Source: Candidatus Doudnabacteria bacterium RIFCSPHIGHO2_12_FULL_48_16
GTDB taxonomy: Bacteria; Patescibacteriota; Doudnabacteria; UBA920; O2-02-FULL-48-8
Direction of reading: 5' to 3'
Assembly (NCBI GenBank): GCA_001780035.1
Contig: MFEY01000007.1
Span: 6,212-70,211 of the forward strand
DNA length: 64,000 nucleotides
A program made the translations under genes and the position numbers. This document shows, piece after piece, positions 17,972 through 35,748 of the stretch. The notes below the pieces were generated by a model. The model was not told where the DNA came from and ran no database searches. It was given only the letters and a program-made list of their open reading frames with translations. How positions within the stretch are numbered: position 1 is the stretch's first letter; each line of letters begins with the position of its first letter.

Positions 17972-18085
17972 GTCTTTGCGAGCGGCCGCTTTATAATCTA
18001 TATAAACTTAGCGGCCGCGAAGCAATCTCTTTATTGGGGTAAGATTGCTTCGTCGTCCCGACAAGTCGGGACTCCTCGCAAAGAC
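17972..18085. repeat. IR-B element, copy a (GTCTTTGCGAG … CCTCGCAAAGAC)
   Basis: The terminal inverted repeats flank internal hairpins agcggccgc…gcggccgct, cgaagcaatct…agattgcttcg and gtcccgac-aa-gtcgggac. The element sits just upstream of the pgk start. Confidence 0.55.
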
Positions 18086-18099
18086 AGAAAAAATAATAT

Positions 18100-18279
18100 C
18101 TATCTTTTCTTCGTCTTCGCATCCCTGATCATCACTCCGCCCGGGACTTTCGTCAGCAGCAAATACTGACGTTCGCGCCAGCCAAACGACCGGATAAACT
18201 CTGCGGGAACAATCAGCGCCAGGGATTTTCCCGCGCCAACTCTGGTCAGTTTTCTTTTTGAATTGATCGGCCTTGCCAT
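18100..18279 (-). CDS. AbrB/MazE/SpoVT-family small DNA-binding protein (59 aa). It is not in the ORF track, which only lists ORFs of 60 aa or more
   Basis: MARPINSKRKLTRVGAGKSLALIVPAEFIRSFGWRERQYLLLTKVPGGVMIRDAKTKKR is a swapped-hairpin AbrB/MazE signature (…vG.S.a..iP.e…g…). A paralog lies at 22836-23009. Confidence 0.5.
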   Translation of the reverse strand: MARPINSKRKLTRVGAGKSLALIVPAEFIRSFGWRERQYLLLTKVPGGVMIRDAKTKKR

Positions 18280-18321
18280 ATTTAACTACTTACTTAAGTA
18301 AGTAGTTTAGTGCTGAGTTAC

Positions 18322-18927
18322 TTATTTCGTAAACTTGAAAGTGGACAGGATTTGATCCACCAAAGGAGATACTTTATTAACATAATCATTACTATCGCTT
18401 AAAACATCCGTAAAACTTAGAAAATAAGTTAGAGCAAATGCATTGTTGTTTTTTTCAAAGACAACAATTCTCATGACCCCTAATCCTGTATCGTAGACCA
18501 ATTCGAACGCATCTTCCTGCGCAAATACTATTTTCTGGTTAGATATTAATTTGAACCCTCTAGCCGCGTTGTAAACATTTAACCAATTATTTGCTACTGT
18601 CGATGCCGCTTTATTTTCATATACATACCAGACTGTACCCGAGGGTGCCTGACCTTGAACTTTAGGACCTGTTACCGATACTAAATTCTCATACCACAGC
18701 GAATCGCTCGCGTCGGACTTTGGAAGATGTCTGTCGATTAACTCCCAATTGCTTGGATACTTAAACTCAAACCCGTATTTGGTATTGGTATAAGTTTTCC
18801 AATTCACGGTTTCATTTGTTGTGACTGGAGCCTTAACAATTCTGGGATTCTGCCACAGGTAAATGCCACCGACCACAACGATGGCGGCCGCAGCGAGAAA
18901 TAGATAGCCTAAAATTTTATGCTTCAT
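18322..18927 (-). CDS. Membrane-anchored extracytoplasmic protein, member of the W-TY-N-KYGFEF-YP family, paralog 1
   Basis: N-terminal transmembrane segment, motif [20 protein letters not shown], and a C-terminus …ILSTFKFTK shared with 22033, 23093, 23907 and 45219. Confidence 0.5.
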   Translation of the reverse strand: MKHKILGYLFLAAAAIVVVGGIYLWQNPRIVKAPVTTNETVNWKTYTNTKYGFEFKYPSNWELIDRHLPKSDASDSLWYENLVSVTGPKVQGQAPSGTVWYVYENKAASTVANNWLNVYNAARGFKLISNQKIVFAQEDAFELVYDTGLGVMRIVVFEKNNNAFALTYFLSFTDVLSDSNDYVNKVSPLVDQILSTFKFTK

Positions 18928-19655
18928 TTTAATTCTTTAATTTTCTTAATTAAATTTTCTGGATACCAAACTGGTCCGATTATAACTGGTGCTATTGAAT
19001 TATAATCTGTTGTTCGCAGAACCACATTACCACTTTTGGAATCAGATAATTTAGCCAAAGATCCTAACACAGCGGTCGCTGGTATCGTCCGGCCCCGTGT
19101 TGAAATCATCTGCCAATAAGAAAACTTGGTTGGATAAATTTCAGTAATATTTTTGATATAAATCGTGCGGAGATTATACATTAATGGCAGCAATCCTTTG
19201 ATCTCAACTCTGTCGCTATAAAGGATAAATTTTCTGGAAAATGCGCTAAAACCTAGAAAAATAATAATAATTAATATAACCAATCCGACTATTAATAACC
19301 TTATATCCAGTTGATCAAATGCTTTAAGTGCTCCATACAGAATAAATACACTCATAAAGCCAAAATATCCTAATACCACATAAAATCCGGATCTATCTTG
19401 CTTAATTTCAATCCCGTTCGTAATGAACTCATATTTATCAGCTGTCTTATTTTGTTCTTGAGGTATATTGCCCAGGCCAGAAAAGAAAAGAATCGCGCCC
19501 AACACCATCATAAAAATGCCGACAATTTGCAAATTCTCGTTTGGTTTTAATCCCCAAACCAATACTGCTCCGGCAATGGCGAAAATTAAACCAAATAAAA
19601 TTAACGTTTTAGATGAGATAAATTCTGACTTCTGTTCCATATTACTCTTTCCCAA
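18924..19655 (-). CDS. Polytopic membrane protein with a possible bacterial PH-like (YdbT/DUF304-like) segment
   Basis: 243 aa with several transmembrane helices. Its stop overlaps the start of 18322-18927 by 4 nt. Confidence 0.35.
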   Translation of the reverse strand: MGKSNMEQKSEFISSKTLILFGLIFAIAGAVLVWGLKPNENLQIVGIFMMVLGAILFFSGLGNIPQEQNKTADKYEFITNGIEIKQDRSGFYVVLGYFGFMSVFILYGALKAFDQLDIRLLIVGLVILIIIIFLGFSAFSRKFILYSDRVEIKGLLPLMYNLRTIYIKNITEIYPTKFSYWQMISTRGRTIPATAVLGSLAKLSDSKSGNVVLRTTDYNSIAPVIIGPVWYPENLIKKIKELK

Positions 19656-20733
19656 TTAAGATTGCCTGCTCCACAAAGCGGTTGGCATAGCCGAATTCAT
19701 TGTCATACCAGGCCACAACCTTAACCATATCGCCGTCGACCACTTGGGTCAGGGACAAATCAACTACCGCGGAGTGCGGGTTACCAATGATATCAGAAGA
19801 AACGATTGGATCGGTCGTAACTTCCAGAATGTTTTTCCACATCGGATGCTTGGCCATCTCAATAAAAGCGTTGTTCACTTCCTCAACCGTGGTTCTTTTG
19901 TTCAACAGCGCGGTAAAATCTGAAAGAGAACCGCAGGCCACCGGCACCCGGAATGCAATTCCGCCAAACTCACCCTTGAGCTCCGGGATAACTTCAGTCG
20001 CCGCGATCGAGGCGCCGGTCGAGGTCGGTGTGATGTTGAAACCGGCGGCGCGCATTCGGCGCAGATCTTTATGCAATGGCGGCGGCGGCCCATCCACCAA
20101 ATTCTGCTCCACGGTCAGGGCATGAATCGTCGACATCATCATTTTTTTGACGCCAAACTTGCTATGCAGAATGGCTGCCACCGGCGTGATACAGTTGGTG
20201 GTGCAAGAGGCGTTGGAAATCACATTCTGGCCTTTGTATTGATCGCTGTTGACCCCCAAAATAAACGTCGGGGTAATTCCATCATCTTTCGCCGGGGCGG
20301 AAATAATGACTTTTTTGGCGCCGGCTTTGAGGTGAGCGGAGGCCAGCTCGGTGGTAATAAATCGGCCAGTCGATTCCAGCACCACGTCCACATTTAAATC
20401 CCGCCAGGGCAGCATAGCCGGGTCTTTTTCGGCGAAAATCGGAGTTTTCCGGCCATCGACGGTCAGTGTCCCGGCCGAAGAAATCAACGGGTTGGCTTTT
20501 TCTTTTTTGGTATCAAAACTCACCGGCTTGTCGTAAACGCCGTAGACCGAATCGTATTTTAAAAGGTTGGCCAGCACATCCGGTTCGGTCAGATCGTTGA
20601 TGGCCACCACCTGCAGTTCGGGTTTGGTCAGGGCAATTTTAAAGGCCTGCCTCCCGATCCGGCCAAATCCGTTGATCGCTATGCGAATTTTGCTCGCCCC
20701 GTTAGATTTTACAGAATTTTTATCGTTAATCAT
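19642..20733 (-). CDS. gap: Glyceraldehyde-3-phosphate dehydrogenase, type I
   Basis: INGFGRIGR Rossmann motif and the ASCTTNC active site. The N-terminal 14 aa (MINDKNSVKSNGAS) are encoded by the IR-A2 element, so the ancestral start is probably near KIRIAINGFGRIGR. Confidence 0.9.
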   Translation of the reverse strand: MINDKNSVKSNGASKIRIAINGFGRIGRQAFKIALTKPELQVVAINDLTEPDVLANLLKYDSVYGVYDKPVSFDTKKEKANPLISSAGTLTVDGRKTPIFAEKDPAMLPWRDLNVDVVLESTGRFITTELASAHLKAGAKKVIISAPAKDDGITPTFILGVNSDQYKGQNVISNASCTTNCITPVAAILHSKFGVKKMMMSTIHALTVEQNLVDGPPPPLHKDLRRMRAAGFNITPTSTGASIAATEVIPELKGEFGGIAFRVPVACGSLSDFTALLNKRTTVEEVNNAFIEMAKHPMWKNILEVTTDPIVSSDIIGNPHSAVVDLSLTQVVDGDMVKVVAWYDNEFGYANRFVEQAILIGKE

Positions 20734-20782
20734 AAGTTATCATCCCCGTATTGATTTTTCTAAAAAATCTAACGGGGTGAAT
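20697..20782 (-). mobile_element. IR-A2 element, copy 2, at the 5-prime end of gap
   Basis: Arms CCCCGTTAGATTTT / AAAATCTAACGGGG. The interior is homologous to the 42555-42637 copy, including an ATG that is in frame with gap. Confidence 0.5.
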
Positions 20783-20905
20783 TTATTTTACAATAGTTAA
20801 AAGAAACGCTGCCACAAACAGAGCCCACGCCATAAAAATGATATGTTCGGTGGGGTCCGAGAAATGGAAGTATTCATGCAATTTTTTGGTCTGCTTTTTT
20901 GCCAT
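20783..20905 (-). CDS. Possible 40-aa small membrane peptide
   Basis: MAKKQTKKLHEYFHFSDPTEHIIFMAWALFVAAFLLTIVK ends in a single hydrophobic helix. It sits between fba and gap. This is a weak call. Confidence 0.2.
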   Translation of the reverse strand: MAKKQTKKLHEYFHFSDPTEHIIFMAWALFVAAFLLTIVK

Positions 20906-20938
20906 TTGAATTATTCCTGGTGAATTAATTATTATTTT

Positions 20939-21820
20939 CTAAATTTGGTTGCTTGTTTTCAAAACCTTCAGCTTGTGTTCGGCGACCTTTTGTAAGGCGT
21001 CAGTCGCGGGGGCCAGGAGTTTTCGCGGATCATAGATTTGAGGATTCTTTTTGAGATTGGCCCTTAAAGCTTTGTTAAATGCCACTCGCAGATCGGTATC
21101 GATATTGAACACGGCGACATTAAATTTGATTGCCGCCCGCAGCTGGGCATCGGGCACGCCGGACGCGCCATGCACGACCAGGGGAATTTTGACCTTCTGC
21201 CGGATCGCGGCCAGACGTTTGAGATCGATATGCTCCCTCAGGGTGGTTAAAACTTTTTTAATTCGCGGATCAATCGGAATGCCGTGCATCGACCCCACGG
21301 CTACCGCCAGCGTATCGATTCGGGTTTGAGCCACAAAATCCGCGGCCTGATCCGGATCTGTCATCAAATCTTCCCCCGATTTCACGTTTTGCCAATCTTC
21401 GTTGCCGAGGATCCGGCCGAGTTCGGCCTGGACCCAGACTCCCCGCTTGTGCGCGTAAGCAACCACTTGTTTGGTCAGCTTCAAATTTTCTTTGTAGGGC
21501 AAATGCGAGGCATCAATCATGACCGAGCTATAACCGAGATCGATTAATTTTTTTAATAAATTAAAATCATGGCAATGATCCTGATGCAGAGCAATCGGCA
21601 CGCGGGCTTGCCGCGCTTCGGTTTTGATCAAACCAACCAGTTCTTCGATCCCGGCGTATTCGAGAGCGCCAACCGAGGTCTGGATGATGATTGGAGCTTT
21701 CTGCGCTTGTGCGGCTCTTACGATCCCCAGTGTGGTTTCCAAATCCTGGGTGTTGAATGCCGGCACGGCATATTTGCCGAGCATGTGTCTGTTGATCAGT
21801 TTGCCAATATGGACGAGCAT
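20939..21820 (-). CDS. fba: Fructose-bisphosphate aldolase, class II
   Basis: Class II FBA metal-binding motifs (…IALHQDHCHDF…, …HGASG…). 293 aa. Confidence 0.9.
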   Translation of the reverse strand: MLVHIGKLINRHMLGKYAVPAFNTQDLETTLGIVRAAQAQKAPIIIQTSVGALEYAGIEELVGLIKTEARQARVPIALHQDHCHDFNLLKKLIDLGYSSVMIDASHLPYKENLKLTKQVVAYAHKRGVWVQAELGRILGNEDWQNVKSGEDLMTDPDQAADFVAQTRIDTLAVAVGSMHGIPIDPRIKKVLTTLREHIDLKRLAAIRQKVKIPLVVHGASGVPDAQLRAAIKFNVAVFNIDTDLRVAFNKALRANLKKNPQIYDPRKLLAPATDALQKVAEHKLKVLKTSNQI

Positions 21821-22027
21821 TTAGAATTTGATTCCGGCCTTAAAGATATCCATCAGGCTGGGCAGTTTGGGGTTGCCGGCCTTGGGCTTGCAAACAGCAT
21901 AAATCAATTTGTATTCGCAATTAAAATTCTTCGCGGTCGAGGCGGTTAGGCCGCGCCAAAATATGAAGCCGAGCACTATTACTACAACCAGGATAATTCG
22001 ATTTCTCATTTTTTTCTTGATGTACAT
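21821..22027 (-). CDS. Small hypothetical secreted or membrane protein
   Basis: 68 aa with an N-terminal hydrophobic segment. Its stop abuts the fba start. Confidence 0.3.
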   Translation of the reverse strand: MYIKKKMRNRIILVVVIVLGFIFWRGLTASTAKNFNCEYKLIYAVCKPKAGNPKLPSLMDIFKAGIKF

Positions 22028-22032
22028 ATTAA

Positions 22033-22839
22033 TTATTGTATTTCAAGGGTGGATAATAGCTTTTGAAACTCAAGTTTCTTATGAGCTAAATCTGGATCCT
22101 TATCAGGATTTGGGATATAGAGCTCGAAGGCAATTCCTGAAAAATCCTTCGATGACTTGAGATTAAAAATAGCACCATAACGCCAGGGATAATACCACTC
22201 CATCCCGACGTAAGTTATAGGGTCAATAAAAATACCTGTAGTATTCACACCTGTAACCTCACTAATTAATTTGGAATCAAGCAGATATTTGGTGTTTTGA
22301 ATATATTTGAAGTAATATGCTGTAAGATTTTTAACGTAACCTGTACTATCAAAAAATTGTCCACCTCGATTAGTCTGGAAATCGGAACTAATGCCACCAA
22401 ATAATGCATAACGACTGTTTTGCCCTGGTGGTTTATAATATGCAGCAAATGTTTTCCCTTTGACCTGATCGGGATAAGATGTGTACCCGTAAGTTTCACC
22501 ATTTTTAATTTCGAGGGATATCTCGCCCCAATCGGATGGATATTCAAACTTTACCCCAAGCTCTTTACTTTCAAATGTCTTCCAGTTCAAGGTGTCATTT
22601 GTAGTTTCGGATTTTCTACAATTAGTTCCAGCATCAGGAAAATTGTCTTCCGGGATACAGGTATATCCAGAAGTCGGACAAGGAATGCCGGCAACACTAC
22701 CGCAAAAAATTTCACCTTTGTCTTGGTGGACCACTGGGCCTGGGATCGCCTGGTGCGCCACCTGCCAATAATAAAGCACTGACACGACTGCCGCGCCGAT
22801 CGCCACCAGAAATATGATTCCTAAAACTTTGTATTTCAT
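22033..22839 (-). CDS. Membrane-anchored extracytoplasmic protein, same family, paralog 2
   Basis: LNWKTFESKELGVKFEYPSDW motif with an N-terminal transmembrane segment. Its ATG overlaps the TGA of the upstream AbrB-like gene (ATGA). Confidence 0.5.
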   Translation of the reverse strand: MKYKVLGIIFLVAIGAAVVSVLYYWQVAHQAIPGPVVHQDKGEIFCGSVAGIPCPTSGYTCIPEDNFPDAGTNCRKSETTNDTLNWKTFESKELGVKFEYPSDWGEISLEIKNGETYGYTSYPDQVKGKTFAAYYKPPGQNSRYALFGGISSDFQTNRGGQFFDSTGYVKNLTAYYFKYIQNTKYLLDSKLISEVTGVNTTGIFIDPITYVGMEWYYPWRYGAIFNLKSSKDFSGIAFELYIPNPDKDPDLAHKKLEFQKLLSTLEIQ

Positions 22840-23009
22840 TTGGTTTTCTTATGTTTCGTCATGGCGTCCCGGATCGAAATGCCCCGGGGCATACGCTTCA
22901 CCAAAACCCTTTGTCGCTCGCGCCAGCCCAAGGTTTTCAGTAATTCTTTTGGAATTACAACGGCCAATGATCTTTTGCCAACTCTGGTTACTTTATAAAC
23001 GTTTTTCAT
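22836..23009 (-). CDS. AbrB/MazE/SpoVT-family small protein (57 aa, not in the ORF track)
   Basis: MKNVYKVTRVGKRSLAVVIPKELLKTLGWRERQRVLVKRMPRGISIRDAMTKHKKTK is a paralog of 18100-18279. It is translationally coupled to the downstream family member. Confidence 0.5.
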   Translation of the reverse strand: MKNVYKVTRVGKRSLAVVIPKELLKTLGWRERQRVLVKRMPRGISIRDAMTKHKKTK

Positions 23010-23092
23010 TTGCTTTTGCTACGTAGCATGCTACGTAATTATATTATTTTTTAGGGAGTTTTCTCGAAGCCAATTAGCAAGCTATCTAACAT

Positions 23093-23818: not shown

Positions 23819-23906
23819 AAGCTATATTTCCCTTGCTCTAAATTTCGGATGCTTTTTCATATAGGCTTCGATTTCCGGAATTTTTATGATAAATGCTTTC
23901 ATAAAA

Positions 23907-24752: not shown

Positions 24753-24755
24753 AAT

Positions 24756-25196
24756 CTATATTTCTCTGGCTCGAAATTTCGGATGCGTCTTTAAATATTT
24801 TTCAATCTGCGGCCTGGTCTGTAGCCCGGCATGCGGCCCGATATGCATCACGACATTGCCGCCGTTTATAGTTCCCCAGGCCATAGCTTCTCCGACATTT
24901 TTTCCGTAAAAAATCGCGGCAGTAAATGCGGTGCCAAACGCGTCCCCGGCTCCGGTGGCTTCGATATGCGGGCCTACAAATTCATCCATTTTAAGCTGGC
25001 TACCAACCGCATCCAAGACTTCTGCGTCTATTTTATCTACAAGCTGAGACAAAATCGCGTCAAAACCCGCTGTTTCCAGCTTTAGTTCGTCTTTAGACAA
25101 TGGCCTATCCAAAGAGGATACTTTTACATCATGACCGGCCTGAGCCAATAAATCCAAACCTGTTTGTGGAATTTTTCTTGTAACGAATATTTTCAT
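24756..25196 (-). pseudogene. Chimeric gene remnant: an N-terminal fragment of a D-2-hydroxyacid dehydrogenase fused to the C-terminal third of a PfkB kinase
   Basis: MKIFVTRKIPQTGLDLLAQAGHDVKV…DKIDAEVLDAVGSQLK looks like a 2-Hacid_dh N-terminus. It is followed by GPHIEATGAGDAFGTAF…YLKTHPKFRAREI, which matches the last roughly 75 aa of the pfkB product at 25637-26611. A third 13-aa copy (…YMKKHPKFRAREI) ends ORF 23822-24073. Confidence 0.45.
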
Positions 25197-25208
25197 AGAA
25201 TTTTTTCT

Positions 25209-25317
25209 GTCTTTGCGAGGAGGAACGTCTGACGTTCCGACGAAACAATCTCTGGAAGAGATCGCCGCGCGACTGCCGAGAATAATACTTATTGATAAAG
25301 CAGTCGCTCGCGAAGAC
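25209..25317. repeat. IR-B element, copy b
   Basis: gtctttgcgaggagg … cgctcgcgaagac, with internal hairpins ggaacgtctgacgttcc and caatctctggaagagatcg. Confidence 0.5.
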
Positions 25318-25359
25318 GTAATTTATTGATTAATTTTTCTTGTGACAAATATTTTCATG

Positions 25360-25635: not shown

Positions 25636-25636
25636 C

Positions 25637-26611
25637 TTAAATCTCCCGCGCCCTAAACTTAGGGTGCTTATTCAGATAATTCTCGATCTGCGCTCTAGTT
25701 TGCAATCCTTTGTGCGGTCCCACATGCATTACCACATTGCCGCCGTTGATCGTGCCCCAGGCGATGGCTTCGCTGACAGGTTTACCCAAGGCAATGGCTG
25801 CGGTAAACGCGGTTGAGTAGGCATCACCCGCCCCGGTGGCTTCGATATGCGGGCCCGGATATTCATCCAGATACCAAACGCGGGTCTGGCCCGAAGCATA
25901 AGACCCCTGCCGGCCGTCAGTCAGCACGGCAATTTTGGCGCCCAGCTTGTGCATGCCTTTGAGCAATGTTTTAACATTGCGCGTATTTTCCTTCAGCACC
26001 AGCTGCGCTTCTTCCCGATTGAGGAACAAAATTTCCGTGCGCTTGTAAATCCCGTTCAGTTTTGAAGCCCCCATCCGCATCTGGAACGTGCCGGGGTTGA
26101 ACGACAACCTGATTTTGGAATTTCGGTTCAAAAAACTTTCGATCTCCTTGTGAAATTTCTCGGTGCCGGCAGCCATGGAGGAAAAATAAATCCAATCGGT
26201 ATTCAGTTTCGGCAATTTATAAGCGAACTTGTTGTGCTTAATCAAGATCGTGCGCTCACCCTGAAACGACAGGACGAAATGGAAATTGGTCAAGACGCCC
26301 TGGTTGGCATGGATAAACTGCGTGTCGATTCCTTCGGCCTTCAGCTCCCGGACAATCTTACGGCCGTTTTCATCATCGCCGACCGAGGTCACAAACGCGT
26401 TACGCAAGCCGAGGCGAGCCGAACCCACGGCATTATTGGTCGAATTGCCGGCCGGGAGCATGGTCAAGCTTTCATAAGGAACTTTATCCGCATAAGAAAG
26501 ACAAAGCTGGCAGTTGGTATGGTCAACTGAGCAATGAACCGACGCCTCGTGCAGTTCAATAAACGCATCGATGGTCGTATCACCAATTGAAACTATGTCG
26601 TATTTCGGCAC
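25637..26611 (-). CDS. PfkB-family carbohydrate kinase (ribokinase/fructokinase-like)
   Basis: …VGDDENG… and a C-terminal GAGDAYSTAF…TINGGNV motif. 324 aa. Confidence 0.8.
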   Translation of the reverse strand: MPKYDIVSIGDTTIDAFIELHEASVHCSVDHTNCQLCLSYADKVPYESLTMLPAGNSTNNAVGSARLGLRNAFVTSVGDDENGRKIVRELKAEGIDTQFIHANQGVLTNFHFVLSFQGERTILIKHNKFAYKLPKLNTDWIYFSSMAAGTEKFHKEIESFLNRNSKIRLSFNPGTFQMRMGASKLNGIYKRTEILFLNREEAQLVLKENTRNVKTLLKGMHKLGAKIAVLTDGRQGSYASGQTRVWYLDEYPGPHIEATGAGDAYSTAFTAAIALGKPVSEAIAWGTINGGNVVMHVGPHKGLQTRAQIENYLNKHPKFRAREI

Positions 26612-26684: not shown

Positions 26685-26781
26685 GTCTTTGCGAGGAGGC
26701 CAATTTTTGAGCCTTAACTTAGTGGCTGATGAAGCAATCTCTTTTCTCGTGATGAGATTGCTTCGTTTCGCTCGCAAAGAC
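26685..26781. repeat. IR-B element, copy c
   Basis: gtctttgcgaggagg…gaagcaatctcttttctcgtgatgagattgcttcg…cgctcgcaaagac. Confidence 0.55.
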
Positions 26782-28148: not shown

Positions 28149-28172
28149 AAATTATTTTTCCTTTCTTTGCGA

Positions 28173-29078
28173 CTATTCATGTTCGCTCCTAATCTTCCCT
28201 CCCAGGGTTCTTAATTCTTTTAAGGCAATATGGGCTTGCTCATTTTTCGGCGGCGCGCCGGACGGCTCGATTGTGCCTGGCGGGTTGCCATGCCACTCGT
28301 AGCGATATTCCATAAAATCCACGCCCTTGCCCGGAATGGTGTGGCAAATGATGACCGTGGGCTTTTCGTAGATGGCCTTGGCCTGATTGCAGGCGTCGAT
28401 AATCTCGCGCATGTTGTGCCCGTCGATTTCCAAAACATGCCAGCCAAACGCTTCCCATTTGGCCGCAAGAGGCTCGAGCGGCATAATGTCTTCCGTGTAG
28501 CCGTCAATCTGGATGTTGTTCCGGTCAATTAACGCGGTTAAATTCCGAAGTTTGTTTTTGGCCGCAAACATCGCGGCTTCCCAAGTCTGGCCTTCTTCCT
28601 GCTCACCGTCGGACATGACGCAATACACGCGCCATGGCTCTTGTTTTCCGCCAGAGGCGGATCCGCCTTTGGCGGACATTCTCAGCCCGACATAAGCCAT
28701 ACCGGCGGCCTGCGACAATCCCTGGCCCAAAGGCCCGGAAGAATTCTCGGCGCCCGGCAATTCCTCGCCGTGCGGATGGCCCTGCAGCCGGCTTCCCAGT
28801 TTGCGCAGCGTGGCCAATTCCGCATGGGGAAAAAATCCGGCATGAGCCAAAGTCGCATACCAGACCGGACAAATGTGCCCGCAGGACAGAACAAACCGGT
28901 CGCGATCGGCCGCCGCCGGATTCTTACCGTCGACATTCATGACCGCGAAATAAAGCGCCGTGAACACATCCGCCATGCCCAAAGGGCCGGCTGAGTGCCC
29001 GGACTTGGCATGCACCAGCATCTTAATAATATCCTGACGGATTTCGTTGGCTTTTTGTTCCAGTTGCTGAATGGTCAT
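28173..29078 (-). CDS. tktA: Transketolase N-terminal subunit (thiamine-diphosphate-binding)
   Basis: …SGHSAGPLGMADVF…GHPHGEELPGAENSSGPLGQGL… The start is trimmed to the MTIQQLEQKANEIRQ Met. Confidence 0.85.
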   Translation of the reverse strand: MTIQQLEQKANEIRQDIIKMLVHAKSGHSAGPLGMADVFTALYFAVMNVDGKNPAAADRDRFVLSCGHICPVWYATLAHAGFFPHAELATLRKLGSRLQGHPHGEELPGAENSSGPLGQGLSQAAGMAYVGLRMSAKGGSASGGKQEPWRVYCVMSDGEQEEGQTWEAAMFAAKNKLRNLTALIDRNNIQIDGYTEDIMPLEPLAAKWEAFGWHVLEIDGHNMREIIDACNQAKAIYEKPTVIICHTIPGKGVDFMEYRYEWHGNPPGTIEPSGAPPKNEQAHIALKELRTLGGKIRSEHE

Positions 29079-29083
29079 AATTT

Positions 29084-29293: not shown

Positions 29294-29309
29294 ATTTATG
29301 TTTCTCGAC

Positions 29310-29439
29310 GTCTTTGCGAGGAACCGCTTTATTATTTTAGGTTTAACCTTGGCGGCGACGAAGCAATCTCTTTTAAGCGGCGAGATTGCTTCGCGGCGGC
29401 TTAAACTAATTCTTAATAAGTTCCGCCGCTCGCAAAGAC
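29310..29439. repeat. IR-B element, copy d
   Basis: gtctttgcgagg…cgaagcaatctcttttaagcggcgagattgcttcg…cgctcgcaaagac. Confidence 0.55.
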
Positions 29440-29452
29440 AAAAGCTTTTTAC

Positions 29453-30127: not shown

Positions 30128-30279
30128 GGAAGTATCATAGTAGTAAATCCTTATTTAGAAGAATTACGTTTAATTCTGTTCCTTATAGACTTTTGTATGG
30201 CCCGAGCGCCGACAGAGACAGCGTCAAACAATACCGTTTCTCCTGTCAGTTTTGGTCGAGTTCGTCTTTCAAGATAATC

Positions 30280-30627: not shown

Positions 30628-30678
30628 TTTTATTTATTAGCACTACGATACATGGAACTATTAGAGTATTTAAACTGA

Positions 30679-31167
30679 TTAAAGATTGATATCAATCTTC
30701 TTAACTTTGTTGACGCGGCGGACGAATCGTTCCTGCGGATCAAACGGCGTGGTCAGAAAAGTGTGGACAATTTTTTTGGCTTCGGGAATGCTCGTGTAGT
30801 CGGCGGCCAGACACAAAATATTCGCGTCATCGTCATTTCTTGCCGCATGAGCGGTTTTGTCATTCCAGGCCAGGGCCGCCCGGGCGCCTTTGGCTTTGTT
30901 GGCCACGATCGATTCACCTTGCCCCGAACGGCAGATCAGCACGCCCATGGAGCCTTGCATGCTGCCCACTTTCACCGCCACCGGCCAGGAAAAATCCGGA
31001 TAATCATCATCGGGTGTATATGTATGAGCGCCGAGATCTTGAAATTCGAAGTGCCACTCCGCGAGCCAAGTTTTAATTTCTTCTTTCAATTTATAACCAC
31101 CATGGTCAGCCCCTAAATATACTTTCATTTTTTTCTTTAAGCGAGGGCTGCTATTTTTTGAGGACAA
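30679..31167 (-). CDS. rpiB: Ribose-5-phosphate isomerase B
   Basis: MKVYLGADHGGYKLKEEI…GVLICRSGQGESIVANK… is the RpiB/LacAB fold. Confidence 0.85.
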   Translation of the reverse strand: MSSKNSSPRLKKKMKVYLGADHGGYKLKEEIKTWLAEWHFEFQDLGAHTYTPDDDYPDFSWPVAVKVGSMQGSMGVLICRSGQGESIVANKAKGARAALAWNDKTAHAARNDDDANILCLAADYTSIPEAKKIVHTFLTTPFDPQERFVRRVNKVKKIDINL

Positions 31168-31248
31168 CGTCGAGGACTTTCCAATGTCCGAGACTTTAGT
31201 CCGCCTACAGCGGACGTGTCCGAAAAAAATAATCTGCCCGAGCGGCCC

Positions 31249-32043
31249 TTACCGATGTATACTTTCACGTTCGAACTCCTTGATTATTTCATAAAAATTA
31301 TCGGCGTTGAGGCTGGCCGCGCCGACCAAAGCGCCGCTGATTTCCGGATAGCGAGCATAGAGGCTGACATTGTCTTTGTTCACGGTGCCGCCATAAAGCA
31401 CTTTGGCCTTTCGGGCCTTAGCTGCCGGCATATGGCGCTCCAATATTTGGTAAATATGCTCGATGACATCCCGCGCATGTTCGCCGCTGGCCGGTTTGGA
31501 ATTTTTCATGGTCGAGATGGCCCAGACCGGTTCATAGGCATAGACAATTTTTTTCAGATCCTCCGCGGCAACATTGTGGATGCATTTAACAAACTGTTTG
31601 GTGACCAGAGTTTTCATTTCGCTCTCAATCGCCCCCTCTTCGCCGCCTAGGCACAAAATCGGAATCAGTTTGTGTTGCAGAGCGGCAATCAATTTGGCAT
31701 TAACTACTGAATCGGTTTCACCCTGATACATCCGCCGCTCCGAATGACCCAAAATCACATACTCAACGCCGAGATCGGCCAGTTCGCCGGCGGAAATTTC
31801 ACCAGTCATGCTGCCCGCTGCCGCAAAGCTTACATCCTGGGCGCCTAATTTTAAATTATGGCGCCGCTTGGCACATTCCGCCAAAAATACAAACGGCGGG
31901 CAAATCACGTTCTCGCAATTTGGCTCGCTGTCCTTCAAATAACGCTCCAGCGATTTGATCAGTTCGACGGCTTGCTCTTGCGTCTCCGGGTTCATTTTCC
32001 AATTACCGACAACCAACTTTTTCAAGTGCAAATTAGTCCTCAA
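31249..32043 (-). CDS. tpiA: Triosephosphate isomerase
   Basis: …VVGNWKMN…, …ILGHSERR…, …YEPVWAI… 264 aa. Confidence 0.85.
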   Translation of the reverse strand: MRTNLHLKKLVVGNWKMNPETQEQAVELIKSLERYLKDSEPNCENVICPPFVFLAECAKRRHNLKLGAQDVSFAAAGSMTGEISAGELADLGVEYVILGHSERRMYQGETDSVVNAKLIAALQHKLIPILCLGGEEGAIESEMKTLVTKQFVKCIHNVAAEDLKKIVYAYEPVWAISTMKNSKPASGEHARDVIEHIYQILERHMPAAKARKAKVLYGGTVNKDNVSLYARYPEISGALVGAASLNADNFYEIIKEFERESIHR

Positions 32044-32563
32044 TGGGAATAAGATTAAAAGTCAAAAGAATTTTGTTAATGTCGGATTTGGATCCCCGGA
32101 TAACGTAAATATGCCGGTCCGTTTTGGCTAAGACGACACCCTCCACACGGCCACCGCCCAAATCATTGACGATACCGGTGGCTTTCACGCCGTCAACCAT
32201 GACTGGGCTTTCCGAGATAACGTTCAACGGTTTGCGGATCGTTCGTTCGGCATTCGGTTTATAAACGCTGACTTCGATTCCCTGTCCGCTCTCCGGTGCA
32301 AATATGGCGCTGACCTCATCGGCTTCCACGGCCCAGGAGGCCGGATAGCGCAGCGAAAAACCCAATTTGGGGTTTTCGTAAGTGTGCCAGGAAACAAAGG
32401 TTTGTTCGGCGACCTGGCTGCTCTGAGCTTCGTCGCTGACTTTGATGTATCCGATCAATGCGATAGCCACGAATAATACATAGGCAATGGCCCAAATCAG
32501 CCAGCGGTTATGATGGACTTTAATTTTATGCAAGCGGTAGATTGGGTGTTTTTGTTTGGCCAT
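32033..32563 (-). CDS. Membrane-anchored extracytoplasmic protein, distantly related to the paralog family
   Basis: An N-terminal transmembrane segment, then …VSWHTYENPKLGFSLRYPASW…. Confidence 0.4.
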   Translation of the reverse strand: MAKQKHPIYRLHKIKVHHNRWLIWAIAYVLFVAIALIGYIKVSDEAQSSQVAEQTFVSWHTYENPKLGFSLRYPASWAVEADEVSAIFAPESGQGIEVSVYKPNAERTIRKPLNVISESPVMVDGVKATGIVNDLGGGRVEGVVLAKTDRHIYVIRGSKSDINKILLTFNLIPIED

Positions 32564-32592
32564 AGATTTATTTCTGATTTTTAATTTAAAAT

Positions 32593-32997
32593 TTATAATT
32601 TTTTGTCGAGGTATTGCTGCAGCATTAGCTGGGCCGCGATATTGTCTTTCATGTCTCGTTGCGATTTTTCCGACAGGCCCTGGCTGGCCAGGGTTTTGCC
32701 GGCGGCCACGGAACTAAATCGCTCGTCCAATATTTCAACCGGCTGAACCAGCTGGCTTTTCAACAGGGCGATGAACACCTCAGCGCTCTGGGTGCTGGCC
32801 GTATCCTGTCCGGCCAATCCTTTAGGCAGGCCAATCAACACCTTTTCCACGCCCAGGTCGCTGATTATCTGTTTAATTTCCGCCAGGGCGTTTTTGCTGT
32901 CAATGAATTTTTCGAGCGGAAAAGAAAATTTTCCCTCCGGATCCGACACAGCGCCGCCGATCCGCACTGTCCCCCAATCAAGCGCCAGCATTCTCAT
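32593..32997 (-). CDS. ruvX: Holliday-junction-resolvase-like nuclease YqgF/RuvX
   Basis: MRMLALDWGTVRIGGAVSD…LIGLPKGLAG… is the RNase H-like YqgF signature. Confidence 0.8.
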   Translation of the reverse strand: MRMLALDWGTVRIGGAVSDPEGKFSFPLEKFIDSKNALAEIKQIISDLGVEKVLIGLPKGLAGQDTASTQSAEVFIALLKSQLVQPVEILDERFSSVAAGKTLASQGLSEKSQRDMKDNIAAQLMLQQYLDKKL

Positions 32998-33003
32998 CGG
33001 ATA

Positions 33004-34239
33004 TTATTTCGTTTCCCCCAAAGTAACCGTGATATCCTTCGTGGTCCCCTTGGTTAAAATTTTCATCTTCACCACATCATCGGGATTGTAATCTTTGATC
33101 ACCTGAGCCAGACTGTGCTCCTGGTTGATTTGAACGCCGTTAAATTCCAAAATAATATCGCCCTCCTTAAGACCGGCCTTTTCCGCAGACGAGCCAGGGG
33201 CCACGGCCGGATTGCCGGCTGTGCCGGGGACGATGAACGCCCCATAATTTACGGCCAGTTTGTTTTCTTCTTTGATCGTATCGTTGATTAAGACATAGCG
33301 CACCCCCAGAAACGGCTTCACGATCCGGCCAAATTTATTGAAACTTTCGAGGTCTTTTTTGAAATCGTTGATTGGAATGGCAAAGCCCACCAGCTGGCCC
33401 TGCCGATCAATGGCTGTATTAATGCCGATCACGCTGCCGCCGATATCGAGCAGCGGCCCGCCGGAATTTCCCGGATTGATGGCAGCATCGGTTTGGATGA
33501 CTCCCTCCAACTGTTCCGAACCGGAACTGACCCCATTGGCCGTGATGGTTCGACCGATGCCGGAGACAACCCCGGTCGTGACCGTGTTGCGATACTGGCC
33601 CAAAGAATTGCCGATCGCGATGACTTTCTGGCCGATCTCGAGTTTCGTCGTGTCGCCGAGGCTCAGCGTCGGCAGGCCGCTGGCCTTAATTTTAACCAAA
33701 GCCAAATCGTTGATCGGGTCGCGCGACAGCACTTCCGCGTCATATTTTTTGCCGTCATTGGTCAATACGGTATAAGTGGCGGCGGTGTCTTCCACCACAT
33801 GCTTGTTGGTCGCGATCAATCCGTCACTCGAAATAATAAAGCCGCTGCCGCCACCGACTTCTTGAATGTTCGGCTGAACGGAGCCAGAATTGTTGCGGTT
33901 GTTATAAAACGGATCGAGGCCGAACGGCCCCAGATCAAACGGCGAAGTTGAGTAACCGGGAATCTTGTTTAAATCCTTGGAAATAATAATCGAGACCACG
34001 GCCGGGCTGGCCCGCTTAACCACGTCGACCACGGCCGACTCTTCCGAAACCTGGATGGTTCTGACTCCGGTTAGCGATTGATTGGCCGGACCTTGGGAGA
34101 GAAAAGTCGAACCAAAGATCGAACCGGCAATGCCGAATAAAAAACTTAGTAAAATTACGAACGTAATCTGCCGGATACTGGATTTGTCCCCGTCCCGCGG
34201 GATGTCCGCAGTCAAGGCTTTATGAGTGTTATCGTCCAT
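33004..34239 (-). CDS. htrA: HtrA/DegP-family serine protease with a C-terminal PDZ domain
   Basis: Trypsin-like catalytic GNSGGPL, an N-terminal transmembrane segment, and a PDZ domain (…GDIILEFNGVQI…). Confidence 0.85.
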   Translation of the reverse strand: MDDNTHKALTADIPRDGDKSSIRQITFVILLSFLFGIAGSIFGSTFLSQGPANQSLTGVRTIQVSEESAVVDVVKRASPAVVSIIISKDLNKIPGYSTSPFDLGPFGLDPFYNNRNNSGSVQPNIQEVGGGSGFIISSDGLIATNKHVVEDTAATYTVLTNDGKKYDAEVLSRDPINDLALVKIKASGLPTLSLGDTTKLEIGQKVIAIGNSLGQYRNTVTTGVVSGIGRTITANGVSSGSEQLEGVIQTDAAINPGNSGGPLLDIGGSVIGINTAIDRQGQLVGFAIPINDFKKDLESFNKFGRIVKPFLGVRYVLINDTIKEENKLAVNYGAFIVPGTAGNPAVAPGSSAEKAGLKEGDIILEFNGVQINQEHSLAQVIKDYNPDDVVKMKILTKGTTKDITVTLGETK

Positions 34240-34316
34240 GTTTTAATCTTAATTTCTTTATTTTTTTATCGTTTTGAATCATTCGGCATTACAGTGATGA
34301 GTTTATTATACCATAT

Positions 34317-35078
34317 TTACGCTGTAAGTATGTCGCAACCAGTTGCGGTCACGAGCAGCGTATGTTCCATATGAGCCGAGCGGGAGCCGTCCGCAGTGCG
34401 GATCGTCCACCCGTCCGGATCAAAGGTGATGGCCCAATCCCCGGCGTTGACCATGGGCTCCACTGCAATAACCATGCCTTCAACCAGTTTTGTTCCCACG
34501 CCTTTCTTGCCAAAACCCGGAATTTCCGGTTCCTCGTGGACCGCAGCTCCGACGCCGTGGCCGACCAGATTCCTTACCACCTGAAACCCGTAGCGGGTGG
34601 CGGCCGATTCGGTCGCGAAGCCGACATCGCCCGTGGTTTTTCCCGGAGCAACCTGTTCAATCGCCTTCTTTAGGCATTCAGTGGCAGCTTCAATCAGCTT
34701 CAAGGATTGCTTGTCGACCTGCCCAACCGGAACGGTTATGGCGGCATCGGTAAAAAATCCTTGGTAGTTGACTCCCAAATCCAGGCCGACGATATCGCCG
34801 TTTTTTAAAATTTTATTCTTAGCCGGGATGCCGTGGACAACCTCATCGTTGACCGAAACGCAAAGGGTCGCCGGAAACGGCTTGTCGTCCGGGCTGGATT
34901 TATAATTTTTAAATGCCGGGACCGCCCCCGCCTTGCTGATTTCCTCTTCTGCCAATTGATTCAGCTCATAGGCGGAAACGCCGGGAGCCACCCGGCGAGC
35001 GACAAGCTTTAAAGTCCGGGCCAAAATTTGCCCGCTTTGTCTAAGTAGTTCGATTTGCTTGGGATCGTGCGTAATCAT
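34317..35078 (-). CDS. map: Methionine aminopeptidase, type I
   Basis: Pita-bread fold with metal ligands (…VDGV…, …HGIGR… replaced here by the HGVG context). The 253-aa product is collinear with MAP. Confidence 0.9.
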   Translation of the reverse strand: MITHDPKQIELLRQSGQILARTLKLVARRVAPGVSAYELNQLAEEEISKAGAVPAFKNYKSSPDDKPFPATLCVSVNDEVVHGIPAKNKILKNGDIVGLDLGVNYQGFFTDAAITVPVGQVDKQSLKLIEAATECLKKAIEQVAPGKTTGDVGFATESAATRYGFQVVRNLVGHGVGAAVHEEPEIPGFGKKGVGTKLVEGMVIAVEPMVNAGDWAITFDPDGWTIRTADGSRSAHMEHTLLVTATGCDILTA

Positions 35079-35637
35079 TTATTGTTTTTTGAATATCGCG
35101 GGTAACCTTAAATATGTGCTGGTTCCCATTTATAAATTTAAGTTTGCCCAAAGCCTGAAAATATTTTACGGTCTGCCCCACTTGTTTTTTGTGCCAATTA
35201 ATCCGCCGTTCAATCAGGGCCTTCCTTAAATCATCGTGGCGCATCCGATAAAAACTCCGCTTGATAATTTCCTTAACCGGAAGTTTGACGTAAAAAGCCA
35301 AAAAATCCCGACTGTGTTTCTTCAAAAGTTTGACTAAAAACTGGGCTTCGGGTTTAAGTTTGGGGTTGCCGACGAAAACCAGATTCTTCTTTTTCGGGGC
35401 GATTTGAATTTCTTTGGTTAGAAAAATTTTCATGACGGCCACCGGGGCCGGTTTGGCCTGGCCGACCGTGCGCCGCAGGGTTTTTCCGAACGCAGATTTG
35501 TCCCTTATGTGCCGCCGAAAATACTCACCTGATTCCACTCGTTTTAATTCGTAGTGGTTCGCTAACAGACGGGCCTGGGTGTCTTTGCCCGAAGCCGGAG
35601 CGCCCAAAAAAATTAAATCAAATCCAAGCTTTTTCAT
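35041..35637 (-). CDS. Divergent P-loop nucleoside-monophosphate kinase (adenylate-kinase-like paralog)
   Basis: LIFLGAPASGKDTQARLLANHYELKRVESGEYFRR resembles the adk P-loop and NMP-binding region GAPGSGKGTQ…ISTGDLLR. The rest is divergent. 198 aa. Confidence 0.5.
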   Translation of the reverse strand: MKKLGFDLIFLGAPASGKDTQARLLANHYELKRVESGEYFRRHIRDKSAFGKTLRRTVGQAKPAPVAVMKIFLTKEIQIAPKKKNLVFVGNPKLKPEAQFLVKLLKKHSRDFLAFYVKLPVKEIIKRSFYRMRHDDLRKALIERRINWHKKQVGQTVKYFQALGKLKFINGNQHIFKVTRDIQKTINDYARSQANRTT

Positions 35638-35646
35638 AGATTAGGT

Positions 35647-35748
35647 TGTCTTTCGGGACTGCCGCTTAAGCTAAAGGTCCGACCTTTTGCTTAAACTGGC
35701 GCTTTGTATCAAGGTCGGACCTTGAACCAAGCGGTCGCTCGCAAAGAC
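35647..35748. repeat. IR-B element, copy e (variant left arm)
   Basis: gtctttcggga…aaggtccgaccttt…aaggtcggaccttg…cgctcgcaaagac. Confidence 0.45.

Follow-up and report, generated by a model that had tools for sequence, protein, structure and literature searches.

What are the five short repeats that interrupt an otherwise tightly packed operon of a Candidatus Doudnabacteria genome, and to which known system, if any, do they belong? In the 64-kb window (the whole stretch of DNA analyzed here), five IR-B elements of 97-130 nt, with ends GTCTTTGCGAG/CTCGCAAAGAC, are inserted in a minus-strand array of glycolysis and pentose-phosphate genes. All five lie between co-directional minus-strand genes in stop-to-start gaps, and each spans from the upstream stop to some 12-25 nt short of the next start. 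The genes that follow are pgk (element a), a chimeric 146-aa ORF (b), pfkB (c), a 69-aa ORF (d) and an adk paralogue (e). The first-pass annotation had placed the copies in such short 5'-intergenic spaces, and its coordinates are those of Table 1 save for the refined start of element e. The five copies are grouped in one 18-kb region of the operon and none lies in the other 46 kb; a relaxed scan of the 64 kb returned neither extra copies nor solitary halves. We argue that IR-B probably represents a sequence class new to the recently described Ssn system of nucleases and repeats, made up of REPIN-like, non-autonomous dimers of recognition hairpins, a reading drawn from sequence and from analogy with Neisseria. 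The main finding, missed on the first pass, is the link of these repeats to a nuclease gene.

Table 1. IR-B elements of the window and the direct repeats that flank element b.
Feature	Coordinates	Halves (strand)	Form and setting
Element a	17972..18085	17972-18030 (+), 18040-18085 (-)	Tags-outward dimer, 59-aa ORF / pgk gap
Element b	25209..25317	25209-25253 (+), 25257-25317 (-)	Tags-outward dimer before chimeric 146-aa ORF 24756-25196
Element c	26685..26781	26685-26742 (+), 26753-26781 (-)	Tags-outward dimer, transketolase C-terminal gene / pfkB gap
Element d	29310..29439	29310-29371 (+), 29381-29439 (-)	Tags-outward dimer, rpe / 69-aa ORF gap
Element e	35647..35748 (start refined to 35648)		Peripheral/degenerate member, gap between two adk paralogues
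27-nt direct repeat AATTTTTCTTGTRACRAATATTTTCAT, left copy	25170..25196		12 nt from left end of element b
27-nt direct repeat AATTTTTCTTGTRACRAATATTTTCAT, right copy	25332..25358		14 nt from right end of element b

Inspection of the termini defines the repeating unit. With up to one mismatch on both strands, GTCTTTGCGAG has nine matches in the window, all at element ends, against a shuffle mean of 1.03, and none of 100 shuffles reaches nine. The inner arm CGAAGCAATCTC of the long internal hairpin ascribed to most copies has seven matches (0.37 expected), all within elements a-d. The terminal repeat had been given as 12 nt; since its 12th base varies between G and C, only 11 nt of the arm are constant, and the palindrome extends outward by Y/R (at position -1 of 141 family copies, C stands in 93 and T in 40). 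Nor are both ends common to all five elements, as had been claimed. The canonical part of element e is its right outer arm (35738-35748) only; its left arm is, as annotated, the variant TGTCTTTCGGGA, it lacks the CGAAGCAATC arms, and a long hairpin of another kind, AAGGTCCGACCTT..AAGGTCGGACCTT, fills its interior. It fits the family by one arm and is a peripheral or degenerate member.

The earlier picture of an element of about 100 nt holds in that IR-B is a true dispersed family with inverted ends and internal hairpins, but the unit is a half-element of ~30-60 nt, two of which, tags outward, make up each element of the window. The half reads YGTC-WTTGCGAG-(variable apex hairpin)-CGAAGCAAT-C or, in the wider form, YGTC-(A/T)TTGCGAG-(GNA triloop or variable hairpin)-CG(AA/YG)GCAAT-C. 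All window halves begin with (C/T)GTC. The eight clear ones contain GCAAT-C, which varies in copy b; it also occurs in 483 half-elements elsewhere, where the terminal C was part of the search pattern. The commonest tail of the half-element is CCAG, as in the NTS repeat discussed below; the window variant GTCTTT opens its stem with a T.T mismatch and ends in CTC. In the predicted half-fold, a base stem of 4-5 bp (TTGC/GCAA) leads through an internal loop to a variable apex, and nearest-neighbor DNA parameters give the short half-hairpin a predicted stability no better than that of shuffles. Apex inserts take the form of C-GNA-G or GNA motifs when short, and fold better than shuffles when longer (p = 4e-33). 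Half-elements also occur solitary, head-to-head, in tandem arrays and beside a GIY-YIG gene, and 72 of 195 dimers are hybrids with non-complementary inner arms.

The individual window elements illustrate this architecture. The right half of element c is the minimal form, GTCTTTGCGAG-CGAAA-CGAAGCAATC, and the left halves of d and a are 80-85% identical. Element b departs by one mismatch at its right end (GTCTTCGCGAG) and by variant inner arms (CGAAACAATC and CGCGGCGATC). Of the two direct repeats around it, the left copy comprises the start codon and eight further codons of the downstream ORF, and the right copy is a stranded duplicate of that gene start, which runs for 11 codons before a stop. 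In the right half of element a, the apex hairpin is GTCCCGAC-AA-GTCGGGAC. The first-pass annotation saw this hairpin in the SR-C repeats as well and proposed modular shuffling between families. It does recur at 39993-40011 and 40574-40592, both within one exact 172-nt duplication, but the match is marginal (six matches versus 1.29 expected, reached by one of 100 shuffles) and shuffling is unsupported. The shared 8-bp stem occupies the variable apex position, and similar apex hairpins are seen at the same place in relatives, for example GTCCCGATAAATCGGGAC in the Doudnabacteria locus L077. Element a is ~80% identical to L077, which has no other DNA similarity to the window.

The family extends far beyond this genome. 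A scan for the exact termini returned at least 119 loci in more than 15 phyla, so the elements are not peculiar to the window; among the matches listed are Omnitrophota, Chloroflexota, Bacteroidota, Legionella/Coxiellaceae, Alphaproteobacteria, Nitrospirota, Patescibacteria and others, and 91 of 132 elements among these matches also carry the CGAAGCAATC/GATTGCTTCG arms. Dispersal within genomes is evident: one Omnitrophota genome holds five copies ~90% identical with unrelated flanks, and in the loop of one of them a canonical NTS dimer is inserted precisely. Elements adjoin unrelated genes in every gene orientation. That they are inserted intergenic elements, as first proposed, is borne out at the matching gene junctions of three syntenic relatives, where no element is present: pgk overlaps its upstream gene by 4 nt in all three, and two of the three have no element in 21 kb.

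Clustering of ORFs across element loci yielded a single element-specific gene, encoding a GIY-YIG protein of 96-101 aa (PF01541, E 1e-14 to 1e-19). In loci L032, L074, L079, L082 and L096, from diverse phyla, this gene is positioned exactly in the loop between two halves, and across more than 200 loci the 100-aa nuclease is the only gene found between these ends. The association was also examined from the protein side, in 76 metagenome loci picked by the GIY-YIG protein alone and scanned over 160-nt flanks. GTCWTTGCGAG upstream and/or CTCGCAAWGAC downstream was present in 72 of the 76, and both in 48, against a chance of ~4% per flank; GTC is found in most flanks. The 64-kb window itself contains no GIY-YIG gene by tblastn. 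One Moranbacteria nuclease gene sits at the same locus in 21 of 21 contigs carrying it, and so gives no sign of its own recent movement.

Comparison with the Ssn system of Neisseria provides the context for this nuclease. SsnA nicks single-stranded DNA at the canonical NTS repeat, its published target (Chenal et al. 2025, PMC11893778). The enzyme binds the hairpin in its folded form, solely when the DNA is single-stranded, and cuts one strand a few nt 5' of the tag; in mutagenesis the greatest weight fell on GTC, the three nucleotides of the HGTC tag that control cleavage, and on the C directly after the palindrome, the most critical base for binding (PMC11893778). Both systems present a single-domain GIY-YIG protein (~95-103 aa) whose gene lies between inverted hairpin repeats with tags outward, many gene-less intergenic copies and a wide spread across phyla. 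Proteins of NTS-gene-NTS units (CGTCATTCCCGCGAAAGCGGGAATCCAG...), whose tags also point outward, match the same profile at E 1e-32 to 1e-36. As an indirect gauge of kinship with the Ssn clade (CDD cd10448), IR-B-type nucleases were compared with proteins whose genes have the exact NTS consensus on either side, to which they are 46-54% identical over their full length; their residues Y8, Y19 and E67 (GIY/YIG/Glu) parallel Y6, Y17 and E64 of SsnA. The repeats themselves follow a common frame, CGTCATT...AATCCAG, which includes both GTC and the C after the palindrome, and canonical NTS-like dimers are found in the same genomes as IR-B halves, including that of a Doudnabacteria relative. There are also differences. 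In place of the ATTCCCGCG-nnn-CGCGGGAAT palindrome of NTS, IR-B has TTGCGAG...CGAAGCAA, interrupted by an internal loop and capped by a variable apex; IR-B units are usually longer (30-70 nt), and their dimers can fold into cloverleaf-like four-way junctions; and toward its C terminus the nuclease has the motif K(A/G)GSRxxKI rather than KKW(N/R)RAWKL. The published pattern of the Ssn-related motif (SRM), HGTCWYN(0-2)YYVSBRHN(0-5)WNVSBRGN(0-2)RNCYNB (PMC11893778), matches neither strand of the window and none of the 76 nuclease-gene flanks, whereas the same regular expression finds canonical NTS copies elsewhere. A repeat found in many phyla that travels with a tiny GIY-YIG gene argues for an Ssn-type class and against a structured RNA or the relic of a classical transposon.

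The placement of the elements nonetheless invites an explanation at the RNA level, in which they would be primarily cis-acting mRNA structures (stabilizers, sites for RNase III or other processing, attenuators) kept for the expression of flanking genes. On both strands, every element is predicted to fold far more stably than its shuffled versions (z -3.9 to -9.9; -42 to -66 kcal/mol): element a as a four-way junction at -60 to -66 kcal/mol (z -8.2 and -9.9), element e as one long hairpin (z -5.3 and -7.7). All five stand just upstream of ribosome-binding sites, and REP and MITE hairpins are established to alter mRNA decay in other bacteria (PMC3733652). Folds of this stability may affect the operon transcripts. 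We nevertheless regard conservation for such a role as quite unlikely. The stem sequence is conserved across phyla and the loops vary, the opposite of what is seen in a structural RNA; neighbor genes are unrelated and in all orientations; and inner arms are often non-complementary, with the G.U-compatible strand coinciding with the gene strand in only five of 16 informative cases. Syntenic relatives express the same operon without elements. A terminator function, raised on the first pass, fares no better: none of the 22 terminator-like sites between 17000 and 36500 overlaps an element, and no T-tract does. Rfam 15 at its gathering threshold gave no match on the elements, a search of four loci by E-value returned nothing beyond weak, noise-level similarity of the long hairpin to miRNA precursors, and a tRNA/tmRNA search found none. 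Elsewhere in the window, at 59401-59548, Rfam 15 identifies an FMN riboswitch at the gathering threshold.

Inverted ends of 11-13 bp on small, intergenic, multiply dispersed elements, with ~90% identical copies in one genome, are what one would expect of classical MITEs, which derive by deletion from an insertion sequence with a DDE transposase, share its ends and are cut and pasted in trans. This reading, implied by the first-pass annotation, we hold to be extremely improbable. It fails on the target-site duplications for which that annotation had suggested looking: those of 2-8 bp occur at chance frequency among 142 copies, and the longer, offset direct repeats at ~12% of copies do not abut the element ends. 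No transposase recurs among neighbor genes, the other recurrent neighbors being generic families, and the sole gene between the ends is the nuclease. Solitary and tandem halves are likewise unlike transposon ends. The neisserial Correia/NEMIS elements and MITEs such as ERIC, RUP and Nezha resemble IR-B in size (~100-150 bp), inverted ends, intergenic or co-transcribed placement and strong RNA folding, but they have target-site duplications, DDE parents and narrow lineages, none of which applies to IR-B. REPINs moved by a RAYT/IS200-type tyrosine (HUH) transposase, like the GTAG-tagged REP doublets, come closer in form, as inverted hairpin doublets that disperse whole in intergenic DNA with no target duplications and as units flanking a small, often single-copy nuclease-type gene; both PMC3733652 and PMC11893778 draw the general analogy. 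In IR-B, however, the tag is YGTC and not GTAG, the partner gene that emerged encodes a GIY-YIG nuclease and not a Y1/HUH transposase, no recurrent Y1 transposase was found near elements in the part of the ORFs scanned against Pfam, and Di Nocera et al. report no RAYT flanked by CGTC repeats (PMC3733652). Movement by a RAYT is therefore very unlikely.

The CGTC-tagged REPs of those authors (PMC3733652), for which no associated transposase was found, share with IR-B a CGTC/TGTC tag at one hairpin end, A-T pairs at the stem start and a CCA(G) tail in the main GTCATT variant, and they too are multi-phylum, intergenic and mostly inverted pairs. Theirs is a simple stem of 8-9 bp that starts with two A-T pairs and has a 4-5 nt loop, whereas the IR-B stem is bipartite with a variable apex, and the IR-B window variant differs further in its GTCTTT start and CTC tail. 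By their text descriptions, the four described CGTC families do not include the IR-B sequence.

A different relation between nuclease and repeat is the host-serving one proposed for Neisseria NTS/SsnA, in which hairpins would mark incoming or exposed single-stranded DNA for cutting and so modulate recombination or transformation around the genes they flank, as opposed to a selfish system. SsnA does reduce the integration of transforming DNA with NTS flanks in N. meningitidis (PMC11893778), the single-copy gene at its one fixed locus in a Moranbacteria population resembles a domesticated RAYT, and the confinement of the five window copies to one operon region also speaks for this relation. But the functional evidence is confined to Neisseria, nested insertions together with dispersed copies at ~90% identity suggest that the elements are still proliferating, and the absence of elements from syntenic relatives indicates no conserved role at these genes. 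We consider a host-serving function unlikely as the primary explanation.

On the preferred reading of IR-B as an Ssn-type class, each half-element would be, by analogy with SsnA, the recognition hairpin of an Ssn-type nuclease, which would recognize and cleave it wherever replication, repair or DNA uptake, for instance, leaves the DNA single-stranded. Copying that depends on the nuclease, likened to the spread of REPINs with RAYTs, may then seed gene-less dimers in intergenic DNA and in the loops of existing repeats. Several observations weigh against this reading: the window has no GIY-YIG gene, the SRM pattern misses the elements, the short half-hairpin is predicted to be no more stable than shuffles, the window variant starts its stem with a mismatch, the Moranbacteria gene shows no recent movement, and element e belongs by a single arm. 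A bolder version, which we offer tentatively and think doubtful, is that the ~370-bp unit of half-element, GIY-YIG gene and half-element is an autonomous mobile element using a single-stranded DNA route, with the IR-B dimers as its non-autonomous offspring. The nuclease would nick 5' of each outward tag, and new copies would arise preferentially in single-stranded hairpin loops. If true, the autonomous unit would be the smallest self-mobilizing bacterial element known, it would supply the 'missing transposase' of the CGTC-tagged REPs, and its horizontal spread would account for near-identical 11-mers across more than 15 phyla.

As an Ssn-type class, IR-B extends the system, described in 2025, to a second and very abundant class of recognition sequence; since the published motif misses this class, motif-based surveys undercount the Ssn system. 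The natural protein/repeat pairs, NTS-type and IR-B-type with their distinct C-terminal motifs, can help to map how a folded DNA hairpin is read by a protein of 100 residues, and are directly relevant to the suggestion that such enzymes serve as programmable single-stranded DNA cutters. For annotation, the family accounts for a repeat that takes up the gaps between genes in small Patescibacteria genomes and is a probable source of spurious small ORFs in many annotations. Finally, the examples of filled and empty sites, from nested insertions and syntenic relatives, open the multiplication of CGTC-type repeats to experiment.

The most likely reading of the five IR-B elements of the window is that they are REPIN-like dimers, devoid of a gene, of recognition hairpins for a GIY-YIG nuclease of the Ssn type. 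The first-pass annotation had claimed five IR-B copies, and all are present at the coordinates tabulated below; each is read as two YGTC-tagged units (half-elements), predicted to form hairpins, with the tags outward. A search of both strands with the 11-mer GTCTTTGCGAG, allowing one mismatch, returned nine matches, all of them element ends, while shuffled sequences averaged 1.03 and none of 100 reached nine. The inner arm CGAAGCAATCTC gave seven matches against 0.37 expected; these are confined to copies a-d. In copy b one end differs by one base (its inner arms are also variant), and copy e has only the right outer arm in common with the others. A relaxed scan found no further copies or solitary halves in the 64 kb. 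All genes around the elements are on the minus strand, and the placement in short 5' intergenic spaces holds for every copy, as each spans the interval from the stop codon of the upstream gene to the ribosome-binding site of the next.

Coordinates of repeats and associated features in the window and in other sequences
Sequence	Feature	Position	Downstream gene
Window	IR-B copy a	17972-18085	pgk
Window	IR-B copy b	25209-25317	chimeric 146-aa ORF
Window	IR-B copy c	26685-26781	pfkB
Window	IR-B copy d	29310-29439	69-aa ORF
Window	IR-B copy e	35647-35748	second of two adk paralogues
Window	27-nt direct repeat around copy b	25170-25196, 25332-25358	
Window	chimeric ORF	24756-25196	
Window	ORF 3' part vs pfkB 3' end	24757-24988 vs 25638-25869	
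Window	short duplications	23814, 24748, 25629	
Window	IR-A	14953-15057	
Window	IR-A	20694-20780	
Window	IR-A	36324-36434	
Window	IR-A	41364-41477	
Window	IR-A	42544-42643	
Window	IR-A	42820-42920	
Window	SR-C	38766-38945	
Window	SR-C	39872-40046	
Window	SR-C	40453-40627	
Window	SR-C	59233-59395	
Window	exact repeat in SR-C	39887-40058, 40468-40639	
Window	palindrome	28641-28679	
Window	palindrome	42268-42306	
Window	palindrome	45116-45154	
Window	FMN riboswitch RF00050	59401-59548 (-)	
L042	array of left halves	7301-7860	
L107	array of right halves	6760-7060	
L123 (JBFOMS010000751.1)	NTS-type dimers	5231-5291, 696-780	
L033	nested NTS dimer	4187-4366	
L108	nested NTS dimer	~6053-6321	
L117	nested NTS dimer	~4695-4970	
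NZ_CP023738.1	plasmid half-element	~100184	
NZ_CP034088.1	plasmid half-element	~173237	
NZ_CP090350.1	plasmid half-element	~188321	

Comparison with relatives points to element a as an addition to the operon. Three syntenic Doudnabacteria loci (Pgk 64-69% identical) keep the order rpe-tkt-pfkB-fba-gap-pgk-gpmI. The first-pass annotation had proposed comparing orthologous intergenic regions, and all three loci lack element a at the pgk junction: in each, pgk and the gene upstream share a 4-nt overlap, whereas the window has there a 152-nt spacer filled by the element. Two of these relatives are free of elements over 21 kb; the third carries repeats of another kind, between other genes. When the window is aligned at the DNA level with another Doudnabacteria genome, the elements alone match, at ~80%. 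A direct repeat of 27 nt, with 2 mismatches, brackets element b at distances of 12 and 14 nt; it copies the first 9 codons of the chimeric ORF and leaves a gene start of 11 codons stranded on the upstream side. Element b seems to have inserted within a 5' coding end, with local duplication restoring the start. This ORF, a chimeric or decayed paralogue, shares 72% identity with the 3' end of pfkB in its 3' part and resembles a 2-hydroxyacid dehydrogenase at its N-terminus; the region holds several short duplications.

The elements are members of a wide family, and the possibility that they are unique to this window is dismissed by exact termini at at least 119 loci elsewhere (scan with one genome per species). 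Taxa among the matches listed include Omnitrophota, Chloroflexota, Bacteroidota, Legionella/Coxiellaceae, Alpha- and Gammaproteobacteria, Nitrospirota, Desulfobacterota, Cloacimonadota, several Patescibacteria lineages and others. The CGAAGCAATC/GATTGCTTCG arms are present in 91 of the 132 elements among these listed matches, the remainder being mostly CGYGGCAATC variants, and the palindrome reaches one or two bases further out (YC-GTC...GAC-GR). Stems are conserved in sequence and loops are variable, which points to recognition by a protein and not to a structural RNA.

The half-element is the basic unit of this family. Unpaired ends are common, and in a close relative of the window two halves form an inside-out pair whose tags point inward, towards one another. 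Left halves stand in tandem arrays at one locus (L042), and 45-nt repeats of right halves are present at another (L107), arrangements similar to BIME-like mosaics; up to eight left or three right halves, with a period of ~45-90 nt, precede the matching opposite half. Over 483 halves, the insert from GCGAG to CGAAGCAATC peaks at 3, 5, 9-13, 22 and 35 nt. Short inserts consist of GNA or C-GNA-G motifs, and longer ones fold better than shuffles (p = 4e-33). Inner arms of different subtypes, unpaired, occur in 72 of 195 dimers, and the strand on which mismatched inner arms would form G.U wobbles is that of the flanking genes in only 5 of 16 (5 versus 11, no signal of strand asymmetry at the RNA level). 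These results argue for selection on each half, not on long stems between halves, nor visibly at the level of RNA. A half is predicted to fold into a base stem of 4-5 bp (TTGC/GCAA), followed by an internal loop and, at the apex, a hairpin. In the shortest halves this fold does not exceed shuffles in stability under standard DNA parameters, so the half-hairpin is a reasonable model and not a demonstrated structure.

Direct repeats of at least 10 nt within 60 nt on both sides flank 17 of 139 elements, compared with 8 of 684 mismatched-flank controls. Rather than adjoining the element ends, they are as a rule 25-45 nt away (L029, L030, L040, L086, L105 and other loci). Some stem from tandem duplication and the rest are unexplained; the inserted unit may be larger than the recognisable dimer, or insertion may proceed with long local duplications.

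A nuclease gene is associated with the family. Clustering of the ORFs over the listed loci (at least 119) yielded a sole element-specific cluster, a GIY-YIG protein of 96-101 aa (E 1e-14 to 1e-19); what else recurs nearby belongs to types such as ABC transporters, glycosyltransferases and kinases. In one such locus, L074, where the gene lies at 1269-1574, the order is GTTTTTGCGAG-CTTGT-CGAAGCAATCCAGG, then ATG ... TAA, then CTGGATTGCTTCG-TTC-CTCGCAATGACGG. The gene fills the loop of a ~370-bp element, a layout identical in L032, with the gene at 2860-3159, and others. For the reverse test, 80 metagenome loci were picked by protein alone, 76 of them with sufficient flank. Termini in the correct orientation within 160 nt were found on at least one side in 72 of the 76 and on both in 48, with chance at ~4% per flank. 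The commonest end is GTCATTGCGAG/CTCGCAATGAC, and the GTCTTT/AAAGAC form of the window is rarer. The protein family is very large (at least 8000 candidates pass E 1e-8, all of those scored). Two profile matches were rejected: a weak one in Doudnabacteria (L077) is actually a 23S rRNA intervening-sequence protein, and another (L022) is UvrC. No GIY-YIG gene lies within the 64-kb window, so the five elements may be orphan copies.

In Neisseria, the 94-aa single-domain GIY-YIG protein SsnA (CAX49033.1) binds the NTS repeat, CGTCATTCCCGCGMAVGCGGGAATCYRG, as a single-stranded hairpin and nicks a few nucleotides 5' of it (Chenal et al., PMC11893778). SsnA homologues (CDD cd10448) occur in many phyla, with Ssn-related motifs (SRM) on their flanks; the order NTS-ssnA-NTS is similar to an insertion sequence, with mobility not demonstrated there, and 32 of 169 surveyed genomes with >200 SRM repeats (19%) are without an Ssn homologue (PMC11893778). 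The IR-B half has the frame CGTCATT...AATCCAG in common with NTS, including the GTC and the C after the palindrome, the positions singled out by SsnA mutagenesis (PMC11893778), but falls outside the published SRM pattern (0 in the window, 0 of 76 gene flanks). The IR-B-type nucleases are homologous to NTS-flanked ones. Viral contigs were scanned for two canonical NTS copies ~300 nt apart, and the ORFs of three such units (97-103 aa) match the profile of IR-B-type nucleases at E 1e-32 to 1e-36, with 46-54% identity to IR-B-type proteins over full length and a tags-outward layout in both. NTS-type nucleases have the C-terminal motif KKW(N/R)RAWKL where the IR-B type has K(A/G)GSRxxKI (alignment A3), and this motif is a candidate determinant of repeat specificity. 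Membership of the family, the link with the gene, the homology of the proteins, the lack of elements in syntenic relatives and the dispersal inside genomes are all established here. We infer that the IR-B sequence class is bound and nicked as single-stranded DNA, and likewise infer the way copies arise and any effect of stable RNA folds on the operon.

Canonical NTS-like dimers co-occur with IR-B elements in the same genomes, and the nearest relative of the window carries one between tktC and pfkB. Tags-outward NTS-type dimers occur in a Doudnabacteria relative (L123), where one copy (CGTCATTCCCGCGAAAGCGGGAATCCAG) is the exact Neisseria NTS consensus in a Patescibacteria genome. Dispersal within a genome is seen in Omnitrophota: in one genome five copies are ~90% identical from end to end, and their flanks are unrelated. 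A canonical NTS dimer lies exactly in the loop of one of the five, a filled-versus-empty comparison that demonstrates nesting. In such nested Omnitrophota elements (L033, L108, L117) the two repeat classes are physically combined.

The rivals weighed were a cis-acting RNA element, a DDE-type MITE, a RAYT-type REPIN and a recombination control system serving the host. As RNA, elements a-e form folds much more stable than those of shuffles on either strand (z -3.9 to -9.9), and copies a, b and d are predicted to form a four-way junction closed by an 11-bp terminal stem. At the gathering threshold Rfam matches none of the IR-B elements, the single match in the window being an FMN riboswitch (87.7 bits, E 1.2e-18); an E-value search of related loci gave no meaningful match, and ARAGORN found no tRNA-like genes. 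Intrinsic terminators are ruled out, as T-tracts are missing and no terminator-like site overlaps any element. Regarding the transposon readings, the first-pass annotation had suggested looking for target-site duplications; those of 2-8 bp are absent at copies of the family, and no DDE or other transposases were found near elements. The CGTC-tagged REPs defined by Di Nocera et al. are also without a dedicated transposase (PMC3733652).

Support for movement of the nuclease gene itself is poorer than for dispersal of the repeats. One Moranbacteria nuclease gene occupies a single fixed locus in 21 of 21 contigs carrying it, and viral contigs seldom carry a relative of the gene (only 4 do). Dimers of the GTCATT type are present in 111 viral contigs and those of the window's GTCTTT type in none; phage records gave no match. 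Literature searches with element DNA strings or spurious-translation peptides returned unrelated primers or nothing, those on GIY-YIG with repeats or MITEs mostly mitochondrial intron papers, and those on COG2827/YhbQ/UPF0213 nothing useful.

Other repeats lie in the same window. SR-C has hairpin units of the form TGAC-ATCCTCTCCC-GTCA-AGGGAGAGGAT or GGCTGACA-TCTTCTCCC-GCAA-GGGGAGAAGA. These look like the REP type, with a GAC-AT tag where others have GTC-AT, and SR-C may be a third nuclease/repeat specificity class. IR-A has inverted arms ATCCCGTTAGAAAT / ATTTCTAACGGGAT ~40-55 nt apart; some arms overlap gene ends, and the sequence is unrelated to IR-B. The palindrome TCCGCC(A/G)GAGGCGGATCCGCC(T/G)(T/C)TGGCGGA recurs at 82-92% identity, apparently within ORFs.

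The observation of the first-pass annotation is therefore confirmed and its interpretation supported only in part: IR-B is a new version, in sequence and architecture, of an already known type of system. Culturable hosts rich in elements are Kordia algicida OT-1, Maribacter algarum and Methylosinus trichosporium OB3b. A few unannotated half-elements with 94-97% identity over 30-35 nt are carried by plasmids of Methylosinus trichosporium OB3b, Methylocystis rosea and Methylobacterium oryzae, which are cultured methanotrophs and methylotrophs and possible experimental hosts.
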